DNA of 6,186 nucleotides from Escherichia coli (GTDB lineage Bacteria > Pseudomonadota > Gammaproteobacteria > Enterobacterales > Enterobacteriaceae): NCBI RefSeq assembly GCF_003334765.1, contig NZ_QOWT01000062.1. One strand, 5' to 3'. The notes beneath the pieces are model-generated. The model saw only the letters and a program-made list of their open reading frames with translations. It was not told the DNA's origin and made no database searches. The position numbers were made by a program, and so were the translations under genes. The first letter of the stretch is position 1, and every line of letters begins with the position of its first letter. Positions 1 through 6,186 of the stretch are shown here, in pieces.

Positions 1-171
1 CCGGATTATACGGTGAAGGTGAGAAAGTGGTTTTGTGTGATGTGTGACGAAGATTATGAGGGGGAAAAGTGCTGCCCACGCTGCGGTACCGGGGTATACA
101 GCAGGGCGTGGGGGCGGCAGGAGGTGCCGTCGGAAGATGCCAGGGCTGATAATCCGTTACAGAGGCTGTAA
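1..171 (+). CDS. 3' end of an unidentified ORF (5' end outside window) with a C-terminal Cys-rich zinc-ribbon-like motif
   Basis: Frame 1 is open from base 1 to TAA at 169-171. Translation: ...PDYTVKVRKWFCVMCDEDYEGEKCCPRCGTGVYSRAWGRQEVPSEDARADNPLQRL. Cys spacing CxxC-x8-CCxxC resembles a zinc ribbon. The stop overlaps the next ATG (TAATG). Absent from the ORF track because it has no start codon in the window. Family not recognised. Confidence 0.3.
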   Translation, partial: PDYTVKVRKWFCVMCDEDYEGEKCCPRCGTGVYSRAWGRQEVPSEDARADNPLQRL

Positions 172-407
172 TGGTTGCCTCCGGAGCAGTTTGCGGTGAT
201 GCCTTTCCCGGGAATGGATTGCCGGTGCGGGGACTGTGGAGCTTAATTCCGGTGTTGGTGGCCTTTCCGTTGATTTTATGCCAACAGCCCCCTGTGACTG
301 ACAGGCTGCCTCGTCATTCCATTCGTATCTCCAGTAACAGGGGGTTGTATTGTATTTTATTGTGCCGGTTCAGGTGTGCGTTTCCCGGCGCGTCTGCACC
401 GGCTTAA
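171..407 (+). CDS. hypothetical small protein (78 aa), stop/start-coupled to the upstream ORF
   Basis: ORF track 171..407. ATG overlaps the upstream stop (TAATG). No recognisable motif; GC-rich DNA can give spurious ORFs of this size. Ends 27 bp before the IS66 left inverted repeat. Confidence 0.25.
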   Translation: MVASGAVCGDAFPGNGLPVRGLWSLIPVLVAFPLILCQQPPVTDRLPRHSIRISSNRGLYCILLCRFRCAFPGASAPA

Positions 408-433
408 CCAAATTCAACAGGGATAAAATAGTG

Positions 434-459
434 GTAAGCGTACAGCCTGAACCGTCTGG
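434..459 (+). repeat. IS66 left terminal inverted repeat (IRL)
   Basis: First 13 bp (434-446) are a perfect inverted match to 2710-2722. Further inward the match is imperfect, so the inner boundary is approximate. Confidence 0.7.
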
Positions 460-504
460 TCAGAATCTGACGAATTAGACAAAGTGGTGTCCACCAAATA
501 AGTA

Positions 505-906
505 GTGGGAACCAAAGTGTCAGATATGCAGAAAAATGTGACTCCCGGCAGGCGAAAAGGCTGCCCTAATTATCCTCCCGAATTTAAACAGCTGCTTGTT
601 GCTGCCTCCTGTGAACCCGGGATATCCATCTCAAAACTTGCTCTTGAAAATGGCATTAACGCCAATCTGTTGTTCAAATGGCGACAACAATGGCGCGAGG
701 GAAAGCTGCTATTACCTTCTTCAGAGAGCCCCCAGCTACTTCCTGTGACTCTCGATGCAACTGCCGAACAGCCAGAATCGCTCGCAGAGGCCCCGGAAAC
801 CCTCAGTATCAGCTGTGAGGTAACGTTCCGGCACGGGACGCTCCGCTTCAATGGCAATGTCAGCGAAAAGCTCCTGACTCTGCTGATACAGGAACTGAAG
901 CGATGA
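505..906 (+). CDS. tnpA: IS66-family accessory protein TnpA (Orf1)
   Basis: ORF track 505..906. Position as first ORF inside the IS66 IRL and coupling to tnpB fit IS66 Orf1. The track start at 505 is a GTG; an in-frame ATG at 526 (MQKNVTPGRRKG...) is an alternative start. No strong Shine-Dalgarno for either. Confidence 0.8.
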   Translation: MGTKVSDMQKNVTPGRRKGCPNYPPEFKQLLVAASCEPGISISKLALENGINANLLFKWRQQWREGKLLLPSSESPQLLPVTLDATAEQPESLAEAPETLSISCEVTFRHGTLRFNGNVSEKLLTLLIQELKR

Positions 907-1250
907 TCCCGTTACCTTCCGGGACCAAAATTTGGCTGGTTGCCGGTATCACCGATATGAGAAATAGCTTCAACGGCCTGGCTGCGAAAGTACAAACGGC
1001 GCTGAAAGACGATCCCATGTCCGGCCATATTTTCATTTTCCGGGGCCGCAGCGGCAGTCAGGTTAAACTGCTGTGGTCCACCGGTGACGGACTGTGCCTC
1101 CTGACCAAACGGCTGGAGCGTGGGCGCTTCGCCTGGCCGTCAGCCCGTGATGGCAAAGTGTTCCTTACGCAGGCGCAGCTGGCGATGCTGCTGGAAGGTA
1201 TCGACTGGCGACAGCCCAAGCGGCTGCTGACCTCCCTGACCATGCTGTAA
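903..1250 (+). CDS. tnpB: IS66-family TnpB (Orf2)
   Basis: ORF track 903..1250 (115 aa). ATGA overlap with the tnpA stop at 903-906 implies translational coupling. Size and sequence (MIPLPSGTKIWLVAGITDMRNSFNGLAAKV...) are typical of IS66 Orf2 as I recall it. Confidence 0.85.
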   Translation: MIPLPSGTKIWLVAGITDMRNSFNGLAAKVQTALKDDPMSGHIFIFRGRSGSQVKLLWSTGDGLCLLTKRLERGRFAWPSARDGKVFLTQAQLAMLLEGIDWRQPKRLLTSLTML

Positions 1251-1278
1251 ATCTCTTTATCCTGGTTGTCACAGAATA

Positions 1279-1298
1279 AGCCCGGTAAAATACGGGCT
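1279..1298 (+). promoter_or_regulatory. hairpin (6-bp stem AGCCCG / CGGGCT, 8-nt loop) ending one base before the tnpC start codon
   Basis: Seen: AGCCCG(1279-1284) GTAAAATA CGGGCT(1293-1298) then T, then ATG at 1300. It occupies the position where a ribosome-binding site would be; no canonical Shine-Dalgarno is visible. A regulatory role is inference. Confidence 0.3.
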
Positions 1299-1299
1299 T

Positions 1300-2685
1300 A
1301 TGAACGACATCTCTTCTGACGACATCTTCCTGCTGAAACAGCGCCTGGCCGAACAGGAAGCGCTGATCCACGCCCTGCAGGAAAAGCTGAGCAACCGGGA
1401 GCGCGAAATAGACCATCTGCAGGCGCAGCTGGATAAACTCCGCCGGATGAACTTCGGCAGTCGTTCCGAAAAAGCCTCCCGCCGTATCGCACAAATGGAA
1501 GCCGATCTGAACCGGCTTCAGAAAGAGAGCGATACGCTGACTGGTAGGGTGTATGACCCGGCAGTACAGCGTCCGTTGCGTCAGACCCGCACCCGTAAGC
1601 CGTTCCCTGAATCACTACCCCGTGACGAAAAGCGACTGTTGCCTGCGGCGCCGTGCTGCCCGAACTGCGGCGGTTCACTGAGCTATCTGGGCGAGGATAC
1701 CGCCGAACAGCTGGAGTTGATGCGTAGCGCCTTCCGGGTTATCCGGACGGTACGGGAAAAACATGCCTGTACTCAGTGCGATGCCATCGTGCAGGCACCT
1801 GCACCTTCGCGGCCCATCGAGCGGGGTATCGCCGGACCGGGGCTGCTGGCCCGCGTGCTGACCTCGAAGTATGCAGAGCACACCCCGCTGTATTGCCAGT
1901 CAGAAATATACGGCCGGCAAGGTGTGGAGCTGAGCCGTTCACTGCTGTCGGGCTGGGTGGATGCATGCTGCCGGCTGCTGTCTCCGCTGGAAGAGGCGCT
2001 TCATGGCTATGTCATGACTGACGGCAAACTCCATGCCGATGATACCCCGGTCCAGGTACTGCTGCCGGGTAATAAGAAGACGAAGACCGGGCGGTTGTGG
2101 GCGTATGTTCGTGATGACCGCAATGCCGGGTCAGCGTTGGCACCTGCAGTGTGGTTCGCTTACAGCCCGGACAGAAAAGGCATCCATCCGCAGACTCATC
2201 TTGCTTGCTTCAGCGGTGTGCTGCAAGCGGATGCGTACGCCGGGTTCAACGAGCTGTATCGCAATGGTGGGATAACGGAAGCTGCCTGCTGGGCTCATGC
2301 CCGCCGAAAGATCCACGATGTGCACGTCCGCATCCCGTCAGCACTGACGGAAGAAGCCCTGGAGCAGATCGGTCAGTTGTACGCCATAGAGGCGGATATA
2401 AGGGGAATGCCGGCAGAGCAGCGGCTTGCTGAACGTCAGCGAAAAACGAAACCGCTGTTGAAATCCCTGGAAAGCTGGTTGCGTGAAAAGATGAAGACCC
2501 TGTTCTTCGGCTCTGGCCATGGTGGTGAGCGGGGAGCGCTACTGTACAGCCTGATCGGGACGTGCAAACTGAATGACGTGGATCCAGAAAGCTACCTTCG
2601 CCATGTGCCTGGCGTCATAGCAGACTGGCCGGTCAACCGGGTCAGCGAACTGCTTCCGTGGCGCATAGCACTGCCAGCTGAATAA
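1300..2685 (+). CDS. tnpC: IS66-family transposase TnpC (Orf3)
   Basis: ORF track 1300..2685 (461 aa), the longest ORF in the element. N-terminal heptad-like, leucine-rich region (LLKQRLAEQEALIHALQEKL...), a CxxC...CxxC zinc-finger motif (CCPNCGG ... CTQCD), and an acidic-residue-rich core consistent with the IS66 transposase. Ends 12 bp before the IRR region. Confidence 0.88.
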   Translation: MNDISSDDIFLLKQRLAEQEALIHALQEKLSNREREIDHLQAQLDKLRRMNFGSRSEKASRRIAQMEADLNRLQKESDTLTGRVYDPAVQRPLRQTRTRKPFPESLPRDEKRLLPAAPCCPNCGGSLSYLGEDTAEQLELMRSAFRVIRTVREKHACTQCDAIVQAPAPSRPIERGIAGPGLLARVLTSKYAEHTPLYCQSEIYGRQGVELSRSLLSGWVDACCRLLSPLEEALHGYVMTDGKLHADDTPVQVLLPGNKKTKTGRLWAYVRDDRNAGSALAPAVWFAYSPDRKGIHPQTHLACFSGVLQADAYAGFNELYRNGGITEAACWAHARRKIHDVHVRIPSALTEEALEQIGQLYAIEADIRGMPAEQRLAERQRKTKPLLKSLESWLREKMKTLFFGSGHGGERGALLYSLIGTCKLNDVDPESYLRHVPGVIADWPVNRVSELLPWRIALPAE

Positions 2686-2696
2686 CACATCCCCGT

Positions 2697-2722
2697 CAAT
2701 ACGGCCCTCGCTGTACGCTTAC
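2697..2722 (-). repeat. IS66 right terminal inverted repeat (IRR)
   Basis: 2710-2722 GCTGTACGCTTAC is the exact reverse complement of 434-446. Inner boundary approximate. Confidence 0.7.
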
Positions 2723-2923
2723 TTTTGTTCGGACTGCTTATGGCCTTTTTCCACTGGTGGCGCAGGAAAGTTAACCGGCTGCCACCATGGGATGACGTGT
2801 AAACCGTGCAGGCATGTTTTCACGTGGTGACGCTTTCATTGGGGGTCTACGCCGGAACCCCAATATTGTTCACATACATGAATTTGAAAAACTAAGCGAT
2901 ACTGCTGTCCGTACCTTATAAAC

Positions 2924-4297
2924 TTATTTCAACGCTTCCGGCAGCGTCACAATCCACAGTTCACTGTCAGACTCCGGTTTCTCCAGTGGCTTCACTCTGA
3001 GGGTCGTTTCAACCTGCTTGTCGTCAAGCGTCAGCTTTCCTTCCGCGTTCACCCGATAATCCTTGAATGTCTTGCCCTCGACCGGATGTTGCATCGCCAC
3101 CTTCACGCCAAAGTCGTTATCGTTCGCCACCGCCAGCGTTTTGCTGTCGATCAGCGCCAACCCTTCAGCCTTCTCCTGCTGCCAGCCCAAGGAGCGCAGA
3201 TCAACAACCTGCGTTTTCTGCGCAAGGGTAATGCCGCGCTGTGACAGGGTTTTCTCATCATCAAACTCCGGATACTCACCCGGCTTGTCGAAGCCTGACA
3301 GGTCGCTCGCCTTATTGAGATCGACCTCGTAAATCAGGTTACGCATTCTGTTGTTTTTATCTCTTCCCTGTTCGATCAGCAGGATGTGCTGGTTATCGAG
3401 CGCCACGATGTCTCCGATTTTAGCGTCGCTGTTTTTGCTGTAGGCCGCGCTGTCGATAGGATAACCGTACATCGCGGTTTTTCCGCTTGCCGGATCGAAG
3501 CTCACCAGACGCGTAAACAGCGCCTTTTTCTTGCTCTTAGTGTCGATATCCAGCGTACTTTGCACGGCGACAATAATACGCCCGTCCGGCATACGGGTGA
3601 GGCCTTCAAAGCCGCGGTTCGCCTGACGCCATTTGAGGATATTTGGCAAACCGCCCGCAATCGCTTTTTCCCCTTCCGCCGCCTGCGGACCGTGGATTGC
3701 CAGGATTTTCCCTTTACTGTCGATGTTAATCAGGAACGGGCCATACTCATCGCACAGCCAGTAACCTCCTTTACCATCCGGAGTGATCCCTTCCGTATCC
3801 AGCCCGCGATTATCCCCCTTCAGTCTATGTAACGTGTCGCTGAAGGCCACTTCATTGGTGGAGCCAATCACGTCGCTTGCCAGCGGCAGACCGTTGATCG
3901 CGCCTTTATCGTCATGCAGAGGACGGGGATCGATGGCCTCCGCTTTGCCGTTTTGTACACGAATCGTCATCAGCAGCGGCGCGAAATCTGGCGTAACGAA
4001 AATTTTAGTTTCGTTTTTCCCCTCTTTCGGTGAATCCGCGTTCGGACCGCGATCGGTAATGGTTGCGAATGTCAGGGCATCGCCCTGTTTACCGGTGAAC
4101 AGCAGGCCAGAACCTATCCCAACCGGAAGGCCGTTCGGGAATGCACTGGCAAATGCGCCGGCATAGTTCACGTGCGTGCCTTCTGGAAAACTGACGACAT
4201 AGCGCTCAGCCGTAGGTTGTGCCGCCAGGGCAGAGAAAGAGAGCGTACAACCGATTAGCACGGGAATAATTTTTCTTTTCATATTGTTAGCATCCAT
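2924..4297 (-). CDS. secreted or lipoprotein-type beta-propeller protein, phytase-like / SdiA-regulated-domain family (function unknown)
   Basis: ORF track 2924..4297 - (457 aa). N-terminus MDANNMKRKIIPVLIGCTLSFSALAAQP has a signal peptide with a lipobox-like LIGC; an alternative start is the internal Met giving 2924..4282. Motifs ANRGFEGLT and AEGLA resemble the GFEGL and AEG(V)A motifs I recall in E. coli YjiK (SdiA-regulated / phytase-like beta-propeller clan). Family assignment is from memory, not a search. Confidence 0.7.
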   Translation of the reverse strand: MDANNMKRKIIPVLIGCTLSFSALAAQPTAERYVVSFPEGTHVNYAGAFASAFPNGLPVGIGSGLLFTGKQGDALTFATITDRGPNADSPKEGKNETKIFVTPDFAPLLMTIRVQNGKAEAIDPRPLHDDKGAINGLPLASDVIGSTNEVAFSDTLHRLKGDNRGLDTEGITPDGKGGYWLCDEYGPFLINIDSKGKILAIHGPQAAEGEKAIAGGLPNILKWRQANRGFEGLTRMPDGRIIVAVQSTLDIDTKSKKKALFTRLVSFDPASGKTAMYGYPIDSAAYSKNSDAKIGDIVALDNQHILLIEQGRDKNNRMRNLIYEVDLNKASDLSGFDKPGEYPEFDDEKTLSQRGITLAQKTQVVDLRSLGWQQEKAEGLALIDSKTLAVANDNDFGVKVAMQHPVEGKTFKDYRVNAEGKLTLDDKQVETTLRVKPLEKPESDSELWIVTLPEALK

Positions 4298-4397
4298 AAA
4301 GTGAAGATCACACTACACCATAAAGAAGAAACGAGTCAGGAAAATGACATCGAATGGCAACATGCGCGGGCCTGAGGCCAAAGAAATGTAAAACACT

Positions 4398-4415
4398 GTT
4401 GTTATTTGTAACAAC
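4398..4415. promoter_or_regulatory. perfect 7-bp inverted repeat GTTGTTA-TTTG-TAACAAC, candidate operator upstream of the beta-propeller gene
   Basis: Seen: GTTGTTA (4398-4404) and TAACAAC (4409-4415) are exact reverse complements with a 4-bp spacer. It lies about 100-115 bp upstream of the minus-strand gene start (4297 or 4282) in an AT-rich intergenic region. Confidence 0.3.
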
Positions 4416-4545
4416 GGAAACATTTACGGAAATTATTTGTCTTTCTTCGTGATCAAAAATGCTGTGTCTTGTTGGATTGGAGTGATGAGGGCTGCGTTTA
4501 GGAAACGCCCTATATTGTACGGTTGCATTATCGCGGTAGGGGTAA

Positions 4546-4695
4546 TGCACGTGTCAGTATGATGAGCTGACCACACTCACGTGGGTGGACTGGTATAACA
4601 ATCGACGATTGCTGGAAAGGCAGGGCCATATCCCACCGGCAGAAGCAGAAAAAGCTTATTATGCTTCCATCGGAAACGATGATCTGGCAGCCTGA
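4546..4695 (+). pseudogene. C-terminal remnant of an rve/DDE-type (IS3-like) transposase, 5' portion missing
   Basis: Open frame with no start codon translates to CTCQYDELTTLTWVDWYNNRRLLERQGHIPPAEAEKAYYASIGNDDLAA*, stop at 4693-4695. The W-x-x-YNNRR...PAE pattern matches the conserved C-terminal end of integrase-core transposases (IS3 family OrfB). No upstream transposase body is present. Confidence 0.5.
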
Positions 4696-5014
4696 GTTCA
4701 CAGATAAAACACTCTCCAGGAAACCCGGGGCGGTTCAATTGCTGGATAAGATCATAACGATACACCGGGTTAAACAGGTGGTCACTGCTTCACTGAAGCT
4801 GCGTGATTATGATGGTCAGGTAGCAGAAGCTATGCCCATGATACAAAAATGACGAAAGCCGAAATGTCTGAAAGCGTGTGTATTACCTGAAAATATGACC
4901 GGCTCCGGGGTACGTAACCGATTCAACAAAGCCAATCGATATTACAAAACGAGAGGAACTATATATTTCGTTTTCAGATAAGACTCCTTGAGAGATTATC
5001 TTTTATGTAAAATC

Positions 5015-5308
5015 TCAAATATCACCTGATGTAATGTCAATGATAATATTAAGTGCGCTCTGAACAACATCTTTCTTGGTGTGATTAACATCTGACAAAA
5101 AGAACATCAGCTTCTTTATTATGTTCTTGTTGTTTATTATTTCACGCTCACAGAATAAAGCGTTGACTGCCTCTTCTATGACATTTCTCTCGTAAAAAAA
5201 TTGAGAGTTAGCTTCATATAAAATATTGGCCAATTTTTCACCAAAAACCATATTATAATAATCACTGTGCATCTTTCTCCCCCAGGGTTCAGTCAATAAT
5301 TTTACCAT
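5015..5308 (-). CDS. hypothetical protein (97 aa) in an AT-rich segment
   Basis: ORF track 5015..5308 -. Complete ORF with an in-frame stop two codons upstream of the ATG. Codon usage is very AT-rich, in contrast to the IS66 region. No recognisable domain. Confidence 0.4.
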   Translation of the reverse strand: MVKLLTEPWGRKMHSDYYNMVFGEKLANILYEANSQFFYERNVIEEAVNALFCEREIINNKNIIKKLMFFLSDVNHTKKDVVQSALNIIIDITSGDI

Positions 5309-5610
5309 GCCTAATTATGACAGGTGTAACAAGCATATTTTGCTATATAAATAAAATACATAATACTGATTATTGTAAGAACAGGAAGCAGACTAATGGT
5401 TTTTTTTGTGAGCACATTCCTTCTTATGTAGGAAGAGGCTGTATTATATTCAGTCAACTCTTTTTTACTAAAAACATTATCTATGCCATCAAAGTTGCCT
5501 GCTAGCTAATTTTTAGGATATCGCCTTGTCGTGGATTATGCACTCTAAACATGTAGAAGGTATTCATTACAAATACACAGACGGCCATCTTTTGTAAAAT
5601 GGATGCCGTT

Positions 5611-5727
5611 TTAAGTGAGATTCTGATTTTCAAATTGTTCCGGACTGAGACCGCCACACCAACTGTACCATCGCCAGCGATTGTAATCGCACTCGATATA
5701 ATTAAGTAAGTTTGCTGATTTTGCTGT
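5611..5727 (-). pseudogene. C-terminal remnant of an IS3-family transposase (OrfB-like), degraded
   Basis: Minus-strand open frame without a start translates to [38 protein letters not shown], stop at 5611-5613 and upstream stop at 5728-5730. The YIE-x-YNR...[10 protein letters not shown] pattern matches IS3-family OrfB C-termini as I recall them. Only about 30 aa of homology is retained. Confidence 0.5.
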
Positions 5728-6017
5728 TTACTGCGACAGATGTAAAGCTGTGGTGATTCATGCAGACTAAGTTCACGGACTCCGGCAGTAACACCGATGC
5801 ATTCTGCAAGCTTCAGATCTTAACTACGAAATTCATGCGAATGGTGTTTACGTTTTTTTACTGGTTGAAACTGTTTTGTCTTGTGAGTCACCTCTGACTG
5901 AGAGTTTACTCACTTAGCCGCGTGTCCACTATTGCTGGGTAAGATCACAACACTTTAAAATGCCCTATATAGGGTTAACCAGTAATTATCTGTATGATAG
6001 CTTTGAGTTCGGGAGGA

Positions 6018-6040
6018 GGTAATGACTCCAACTTACTGAT
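6018..6040 (-). repeat. IS1 terminal inverted repeat (insB-proximal end)
   Basis: GGTAATGACTCCAACTTACTGAT differs by one base from the IS1 right inverted repeat as I recall it (GGTAATGACTCCAACTTATTGAT). Confidence 0.88.
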
Positions 6041-6186
6041 AGTGTTTTATGTTCAGATAATGCCCGATGACCTTGTCATGCAACTCCACCGATTTTGAGA
6101 ACGACAGTAACTTCCGTCCCAGCCTTGCCAGATGTTGTCTCAGATTCAGATTATGTCGCTCAATGCGCTGAGTGTAACGCTTGCTG
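6033..6186 (-). CDS. insB: IS1 transposase InsB, C-terminal part (5' end outside window)
   Basis: Codon-by-codon translation of the minus strand from the TAA at 6033-6035 reproduces the InsB C-terminal sequence ...[18 protein letters not shown]. Not in the ORF track because there is no Met in the window. Confidence 0.9.

Follow-up and report, generated by a model that had tools for sequence, protein, structure and literature searches.

A single insertion sequence (IS) that lacks flanking direct repeats can be the scar of an IS-mediated deletion, inversion or replicon fusion, as known for IS1, IS26/IS6 and Tn3-type elements. Members of the IS66 family typically have termini beginning with GTAAGCG, and to our knowledge their transposition chemistry, replicative or otherwise, has not been established. 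For the IS66-family elements ISPpa5a and ISPpa7, which were captured experimentally, direct repeats of 8 bp were reported (PMC3281130). The stretch of DNA analysed here (6,186 bp from Escherichia coli, referred to as the window) contains an ISEc8 derivative with the same termini and the same tnpA-tnpB-tnpC order as ISEc8 of E. coli O157:H7 and other STEC, from which it differs by the loss of 153 bp of tnpC and, at this locus, by the absence of the 8-bp target duplication. It resembles the scars left by IS1, IS26/IS6 and Tn3-type elements in that a single IS is bordered by unrelated half-target sites with breakpoints at the IS ends. Unlike in those cases, no reciprocal product was found for the window copy, and a choice between replicative transposition and homologous recombination is not backed by an established IS66 chemistry.

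The element spans positions 434..2722 (+ strand, 2289 bp). The sequence-only reading had described an IS66 element delimited by a perfect 13-bp inverted repeat, and the ends proved to be correct. The window contains exactly two occurrences of GTAAGCGTACAGC, one at 434-446 (+) and the other at 2710-2722 (−), versus a chance expectation of 0.01. The 13 outermost base pairs form the perfect part of extended terminal inverted repeats at 434..455 and 2701..2722 (both listed on the + strand) that match at 18/22 positions; they start with GTAAGCG, and the same ends were present in all family members compared. Three consecutive genes on the + strand show the layout of the IS66 family, tnpB overlapping tnpA by ATGA, and all three products scored above the curated NCBIfam cut-offs: the IS66-like accessory protein TnpA (526..906; IS66 TnpA, NF047595, 94.3 bits versus a cut-off of 74, in agreement with the RefSeq annotation), the IS66 accessory protein TnpB (903..1250; IS66_TnpB, NF033819, 119.3 bits versus a cut-off of 50) and the IS66-family DDE transposase TnpC (1300..2685; transpos_IS66, 353 bits in two stretches). 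TnpC comprises the Pfam domains LZ_Tnp_IS66, zf-IS66, DDE_Tnp_IS66 (E = 7e-77) and DDE_Tnp_IS66_C, the domain set of IS66 transposases. Compared with 2442-bp copies annotated as ISEc8, a name that rests on the RefSeq annotation of these copies and not on the ISfinder type sequence, 434..2722 is 99.2-99.3% identical at the nucleotide level over 2289 aligned bases and lacks an internal stretch of 153 of the 2442 bp. This type of element was found in thousands of E. coli genomes, and ISEc8-like elements are also common on plasmids (3,912 places).

The 8-bp flanks of the window copy, AAATAGTG on the left (426..433) and TTTTGTTC on the right (2723..2730, internal to a DUF6404 gene), are identical at only 2/8 positions; that they do not match had been noted in the earlier reading. 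E. coli strains 042, Nissle, CCUG 73778 and H3 carry identical flanks, likewise without a TSD. All 10 independent ISEc8/ISEc22-type copies examined elsewhere, which have the same GTAAGCG...CGCTTAC ends, are bordered by perfect 8-bp target duplications, as are two further IS66-family insertions; the expectation that IS66 insertions generate 8-bp repeats thus holds, and the missing duplication at 434-2722 is a real exception. A simple insertion is recognized by a matching duplication and by flanks that are contiguous in empty-site relatives, and 434-2722 shows neither, which has no bearing on its assignment to the IS66 family.

The left flank (1..433, + strand) is the backbone of a CP4/KpLE2-type genomic island and comprises the 3'-terminal part of a zinc-ribbon gene (up to position 171) followed by an intergenic region, an annotation taken over from E. 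coli 042 and H3, in which the locus is identical. The window is located between the fim/nan region and IS1F-fecIRABCDE, i.e. in the leuX/fec island. This island has the CP4-type backbone genes yeeU/cbtA together with zinc-ribbon genes and a gene of the inovirus Gp2 family; its likeness to the leuX-associated KpLE2/fec island is presumed from gene names. Alignment of 1..433 with IS-free paralogous islands (L007-L009) revealed 93-97% homology up to and including AAATAGTG, and this homology breaks exactly at 433/434. In the IS-free islands, AAATAGTG is directly followed by TAAATAACC, with the continuation given as TAAATAACCGAAG....

The right flank has a different origin. Positions 2723..2802 (+ strand) hold the end of a DUF6404 gene (78 nt), made up of its final 25 codons and the stop codon as determined by alignment, and are annotated as a pseudogene in RefSeq; around 268 bp of the 5' part are absent in comparison with the intact plasmid gene of 348 bp. 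Intact DUF6404 genes are found on ColIa/IncF plasmids next to the colicin 1A immunity gene; they read ...GGTGGTT followed by TTTTGTTCGG, and their homology to the window begins exactly at 2723. The remnant is part of a plasmid-type block (2723..4560) that also includes, at 2924-4282 on the − strand, the gene of a protein from the 'esterase-like activity of phytase' family and terminates at an IS3 fragment; a patchwork of IS3, IS5 and IS1 fragments lies to the right of the window copy. The IncF plasmid pKSE-C30_1, which carries no IS66 element here, is 99.6% identical to 2723-4560 over 1,838 bp and crosses the junction with 36 extra DUF6404 bases to the left of 2723. An uninterrupted full-length DUF6404 gene linked to the esterase-like gene was not found; the search brought up only pKSE-C30_1 with its 36 extra bases. 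Approximately half of all right-flank matches are located on plasmids, and in the ColV plasmid pE956_1 the IS66-family element ISEc22 has inserted independently into DUF6404 with a TSD of CATTGCCC.

Each flank consequently maps to a different IS-free locus, which supports the suggestion of the sequence-only reading that the flanks were not originally contiguous. With high confidence we regard the ISEc8 copy as a recombination joint, the left end of which keeps the island target AAATAGTG and the right end the DUF6404 target TTTTGTTC. On this reading the flanks stem from different insertions, into the island backbone on the left and into a plasmid-type DUF6404 gene on the right, so that the halves of each 8-bp duplication are separated and the partner halves lost; the missing target duplication is explained by flanking DNA stretches that never were neighbours. 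The homology breaks coincide to the base with both IS termini, which argues for an IS-end-precise event and against a random deletion. Wrongly assigned ends that hide a duplication are practically excluded by the 10 sibling copies and by the exact breaks at 433/434 and 2722/2723, and no shift of the termini that reveals a duplication emerged from the comparison with the siblings. It is equally hard to credit that a duplication decayed by point mutation or that an atypical insertion generated none. The copy is old and shows other decay in the form of the 153-bp deletion, but 6/8 positions differ, and outside the 8 bp the two sides are unrelated to one another and each match a different IS-free locus. 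The DNA around the joint is 99-100% conserved among genomes, so that an erosion of six of eight bases is not credible, and the flank homologies led us to reject a decayed duplication.

At least 80% of the window recurs, in one place each, in 1,694 of 5,426 complete E. coli genomes, where it forms part of the leuX/fec island; the joint is old and widespread. An assembly artefact in the form of a repeat-induced misjoin across the IS has virtually no probability left. Among the metagenome matches listed, 7/30 IS-spanning contigs have other left flanks, possibly as chimeras, and would fit such a misjoin, whereas the other 23/30 exhibit the known joint. The 1,694 complete genomes with the same joint originate from many laboratories and platforms, and together with the four named strains they demonstrate that it is no artefact.

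The rearrangement is best explained, in our estimate with a little better than even probability, by a fusion of plasmid and island through ISEc8 that was followed by deletions and fixation. Plasmid DNA with DUF6404 and the gene of the esterase-like protein would have been joined to the island in one of two ways, through homologous recombination of an ISEc8 copy in the island with another on the plasmid, or through cointegrate-forming transposition of an island ISEc8 copy into DUF6404; we know of no established case of cointegrate formation by IS66-family elements. Subsequent IS-mediated deletions would have eliminated the other IS copy along with the bulk of the plasmid, and the joint would have become fixed in the leuX/fec island, where its inheritance would now be passive. 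The 153-bp deletion in tnpC, between CCTGT repeats, would have followed the formation of the joint. Parsimony is the ground on which the fusion route is proposed, and both the cointegrate step and the sequence of events are presumptive.

An adjacent deletion within the chromosome is a possible though rather doubtful alternative. A single ISEc8 would have inserted normally, its target being either AAATAGTG of the island or TTTTGTTC within DUF6404 DNA already present there; an IS end would then have attacked a nearby site, or two direct island copies of the IS would have recombined, with removal of the intervening DNA together with the partner half of the duplication. Such a deletion requires one replicon only and yields exactly the IS-end-precise junctions observed, and the abundant IS scars nearby attest to repeated local deletions. 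However, it leaves the entry of a plasmid-type block into the island unexplained, the presumed arrangement before the deletion was found in no genome, and a transposase-made version is unproven for the IS66 family. Of the earlier proposal, a recombination between two copies or an adjacent deletion, the rearrangement as such is supported, whereas the two mechanisms were not told apart.

Traces of the precursors were sought with two chimeric queries, one combining the DUF6404 5' part, TTTTGTTC and the IS left end, the other combining the IS right end, AAATAGTG and the island continuation. Neither query gave a record with at least 80% coverage in the 5,426 complete E. coli genomes, and the DUF6404-5'/IS-left query gave none in 72,556 PLSDB plasmids. 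Exact patterns of the reciprocal junctions had no match in metagenome contigs or in contigs of species-representative genomes. A degenerate pattern that fits the right junction in its known as well as its reciprocal form yielded at least 120 metagenome contigs, and the 120 listed were all of the known type. Other copies with reciprocal half-sites, which the sequence-only reading had proposed to look for, were accordingly not found in genomes, plasmids or contig collections, and no TSD-bearing precursor was detected in complete E. coli genomes, plasmids or pattern scans. Such a missing reciprocal product is expected after an adjacent deletion when the excised DNA is lost. Neither the lost island continuation nor other plasmid segments were present within 20 kb (strain H3) or 12 kb (strain 042) of the joint. 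SNPs within the IS showed no hybrid pattern of two parental copies and were uninformative. Two candidates were discarded. An apparent partial reciprocal match (H141) is an unrelated ISEc8, and the likeness of its TSD, TTTTGTCT, to the query flank is a coincidence. Apparent full-length copies at the window locus, of the CFSAN027350 type, have the 153-bp deletion as well but harbour a nested element of the IS66 family.

Alignment to ISEc8 placed the junction of the 153-bp in-frame deletion at 2498..2503 (+ strand), between two CCTGT repeats. As a result, TnpC of the window has 461 instead of 512 amino acids and lacks residues 402-452 of the ISEc8 protein, as determined by alignment and translation. 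The 51 missing residues are conserved (SRHSELAKAFAYALNQWPALTYYANDGWVEIDNNIAENALRAVSLGRKNFL) and cover the final ~60 positions of the DDE model of Pfam; in agreement, the match to DDE_Tnp_IS66 stops at model position 222 of 284 and DDE_Tnp_IS66_C comes next. The deleted block would contain the catalytic glutamate. Judged from this loss of 51 conserved residues, the window copy is probably non-autonomous and unable to move by itself. A 50-mer across the deletion junction is present in 2,210 of the 5,426 complete genomes with a median of one copy per genome. In O145:H28 the joint carries a full-length copy, which may be either ancestral or the product of gene conversion. Another copy with the same 153-bp deletion is located in yehR of O26/O103 EHEC strains, where GAACGGCA borders it as a fresh 8-bp duplication; none of the complete genomes has a full-length ISEc8 at precisely this site. 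That the 2289-bp form is itself competent for transposition, in which case the conserved EIDNNxAEN block of TnpC would be dispensable, appears improbable. Two less novel possibilities are that full-length ISEc8, of which the strains with the yehR insertion carry at least 10 copies, mobilised it in trans, or that gene conversion took place after insertion.

The joint is an ordinary, old scar of an IS-mediated rearrangement of a kind already known, and it involves neither a new mechanism nor a new type of element; it is a further documented example of an absent IS66-family target duplication that signals a rearrangement. Its value is practical and not conceptual. The two sides of the IS differ in their histories, the left being island backbone and the right plasmid-derived cargo beside the fec operon, so that inferences from synteny across the joint are unsafe. 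The junction sequences and the 153-bp deletion are handy lineage markers for an island present in approximately a third to 40% of complete E. coli genomes.

An IS66-family insertion sequence occupies positions 434–2722 of the window. The 13-mer GTAAGCGTACAGC occurs exactly twice in the window, once at each element end and in inverted orientation (0.01 expected by chance), and the extended terminal inverted repeat matches at 18 of 22 bases. Between the ends lie tnpA (526–906), tnpB (903–1250), and tnpC (1300–2685), and all three products exceed the curated NCBIfam cut-offs (IS66 TnpA, TnpB, and transposase); TnpC has the IS66 leucine-zipper, zinc-finger, DDE, and C-terminal Pfam domains. The 8 bp that an earlier sequence-only reading had placed outside the element were read again outside these ends, with AAATAGTG on the left and TTTTGTTC on the right.

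Experimentally captured IS66-family elements are reported to be flanked by 8-bp repeats (PMC3281130). For comparison, ten other ISEc8/ISEc22-type copies at unrelated sites of E. coli chromosomes and plasmids were analyzed, the sites including yehR (twice), yeaR, an integrase gene, tnsE, phage tail genes, and pO157-type plasmids. All ten share the termini GTAAGCG...CGCTTAC and carry a perfect 8-bp duplication directly outside them (GAACGGCA, TTTTGTCT, GGATGTGT, GTTTATTC, TTCTGTTC, GTTTGATC, GTTTGTTC, TCTTCTTT, TTTTTTAC, and AAGCAATC). Two more IS66-family insertions, met incidentally, have 8-bp duplications too. Since the siblings define the same ends with target duplications, shifted element ends hiding a duplication are excluded, and the missing duplication at the window element, already claimed in the sequence-only reading, is a genuine exception.

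The flanks of the element match different loci that lack the IS. Three IS-free paralogous islands (L007–L009, 93–97% identical) are uninterrupted at the left site (...GGATAAAATAGTG/TAAATAACCGAAGTATTAC...), and their homology to the window stops precisely at 433/434. To the right, RefSeq annotates a DUF6404 pseudogene without N-terminus (2725–2802). The intact gene (348 bp) is found on ColIa/IncF-type plasmids, where it adjoins the colicin 1A immunity gene; it reads across the junction (...ATCACGGGTGGTT/TTTTGTTCGGACTG...), and window homology begins precisely at 2723. The IncF plasmid pKSE-C30_1 (CP124989) contains window 2723–4560 at 99.6% identity without the IS66 element and has 36 extra DUF6404 bases left of the junction. 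Thus, the window IS joins an island-backbone site to a plasmid-type gene, and its two flanks were never adjacent, in support of the earlier suggestion that they were not originally contiguous. The DUF6404 5′ part (approximately 268 bp) and the island continuation are both absent from the joint, and neither turned up in the neighborhood inspected (20 kb in H3, 12 kb in 042). Both homology breakpoints fall on the IS ends with single-base precision, which favors an event mediated by the IS ends or IS homology over an unrelated deletion.

Fusion of a plasmid to the island through ISEc8 is the route we favor, with modest confidence, because a single step would account for the joint and for how plasmid-type DNA reached the island, because plasmid-borne ISEc8-like elements are common (3,912 places), and because the DUF6404 gene of the ColV plasmid pE956_1 has been hit independently by an IS66-family element. 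The fusion could have proceeded by homologous recombination between an island and a plasmid ISEc8 copy, or the island copy could have transposed into DUF6404 with formation of a cointegrate; the second ISEc8 copy and most of the plasmid would then have been lost. The pE956_1 element (locus L022, 281–5377) is of the ISEc22 type, has the target duplication CATTGCCC, and is itself interrupted by an IS21-family element; its different site within DUF6404 indicates that this gene is a recurrent target of the IS66 family. The main rival, an intrachromosomal adjacent deletion, predicts the same junctions as those seen and is a possible, though less probable, origin of the joint. SNPs within the window IS gave no hybrid signal.

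The reciprocal half-sites, for which the sequence-only reading had proposed a search, were not found in the genomes, plasmids, or metagenome contigs searched. Chimeric queries for both predicted junctions (DUF6404-5′/IS-left and IS-right/island-continuation) gave no match with ≥80% coverage in any of 5,426 complete E. coli genomes. The former was also absent from 72,556 PLSDB plasmids and, as an exact 27-mer, from the metagenome collection; the latter was absent from species-representative genomes. Of two degenerate patterns covering known and reciprocal forms, the left one had no match in species-representative genomes, and the right one matched at least 120 metagenome contigs, which were of the known type throughout the matches listed (119 with TTTTGTTC, one with TTTTATTC among 120) and served as positive control. 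Among the listed contigs spanning the whole IS, 23 of 30 had AAATAGTG on the left; the other seven (L026, L033, L082, L084, L088, L113, and L122) combined the usual right junction with different left flanks, which did not include TTTTGTTC, and may be chimeric assemblies across the repeat or further left-end rearrangements. With neither precursor nor reciprocal product in the data searched, adjacent deletion stays compatible with the observations.

Alignment to 2442-bp ISEc8 copies revealed 99.2–99.3% identity and a loss of 153 bp after position 2498, between two CCTGT repeats in tnpC (junction 2498–2503). The deletion is in frame and removes 51 conserved residues of TnpC (402–452, SRHSELAKAFAYALNQWPALTYYANDGWVEIDNNIAENALRAVSLGRKNFL). 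The window element leaves the Pfam DDE_Tnp_IS66 model unmatched over its final ~60 positions, to which these residues correspond. The lost block probably includes catalytic residues, and this copy is probably non-autonomous. The deletion junction is present in 2,210 of 5,426 genomes, typically once (median one copy, maximum three), so the deleted form corresponds in essence to the island copy.

In two O145:H28 genomes, the IS at the same right junction keeps the 153 bp, with tnpC frameshifted, and another IS66-family element has replaced its first 15 bp; this version may be ancestral or due to gene conversion. In strain RM12761 (L021, 446–5377), the replacing sequence is an end of that other element, which is inverted and likewise has no target duplication, indicating that the left end was rearranged once more. 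In some genomes, a second IS66-family element is nested in the island-copy tnpC (CFSAN027350, L023 1666–4369, duplication GATATAAG). The deleted 2289-bp form is also found in yehR of O26/O103 strains with the fresh duplication GAACGGCA (O103 RM8385, L002 1501–3789), which suggests occasional mobilization in trans or conversion after insertion. Full-length ISEc8 is present in yehR of seven O157:H7 genomes, 52 bp downstream of the O26/O103 site as judged from one copy (FRIK944, L024 936–3377, duplication AAGCAATC); the two yehR insertions are independent. Plasmid pB27_2 (NZ_AP027426, L004 4019–7168), which has an A/C-type MobI gene and encodes a MobH relaxase, carries, flanked by IS1 copies, the 3′ part of tnpC, the DUF6404 remnant, the esterase gene, and IS3 and IS5 fragments; this arrangement suggests that the plasmid captured the chromosomal joint through IS1.

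Chromosomes of several E. coli strains, e.g. H3 (NZ_CP028732), match the window at 100% identity, and 1,694 of 5,426 complete genomes, 042 and Nissle 1917 among them, have at least 80% of it at a single place. It lies in an island between fim/nan and IS1F-fecIRABCDE. Left of the element are CP4-type backbone genes (yeeU/cbtA, an inovirus Gp2-family gene, and two zinc-ribbon genes); a 17-nt imperfect inverted repeat (284–300/332–348) follows the zinc-ribbon gene, with a 12-bp deletion beside it in two of the three IS-free islands (L007 and L008). To the right, the esterase-like (phytase-family) gene segment of approximately 2 kb is bracketed in pKSE-C30_1 by a ~19-bp direct repeat, ACGNGGTGACGCTTTCATT (L013, 7135–7154 and 9124–9143), which is single at the matching site of plasmids without the segment (L003, ~3099–3118), so that the segment resembles a discrete insertion. 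The window holds the left repeat only (2822–2840); an IS3 fragment truncates the right end of the segment at 4560/4561. The remainder (4561–6186) is an IS graveyard, a mosaic of IS3, IS5, and IS1 fragments, with IS3-family (4564–4695 and 5612–5710) and IS5-family (4760–4890) pieces, a YmgB/AriR-family gene on the minus strand (5015–5296), and the IS1F end from 6034 on toward fecI. The window element is an ordinary scar of ancient IS activity, of a kind already known, and the mosaic island that carries it is well known.
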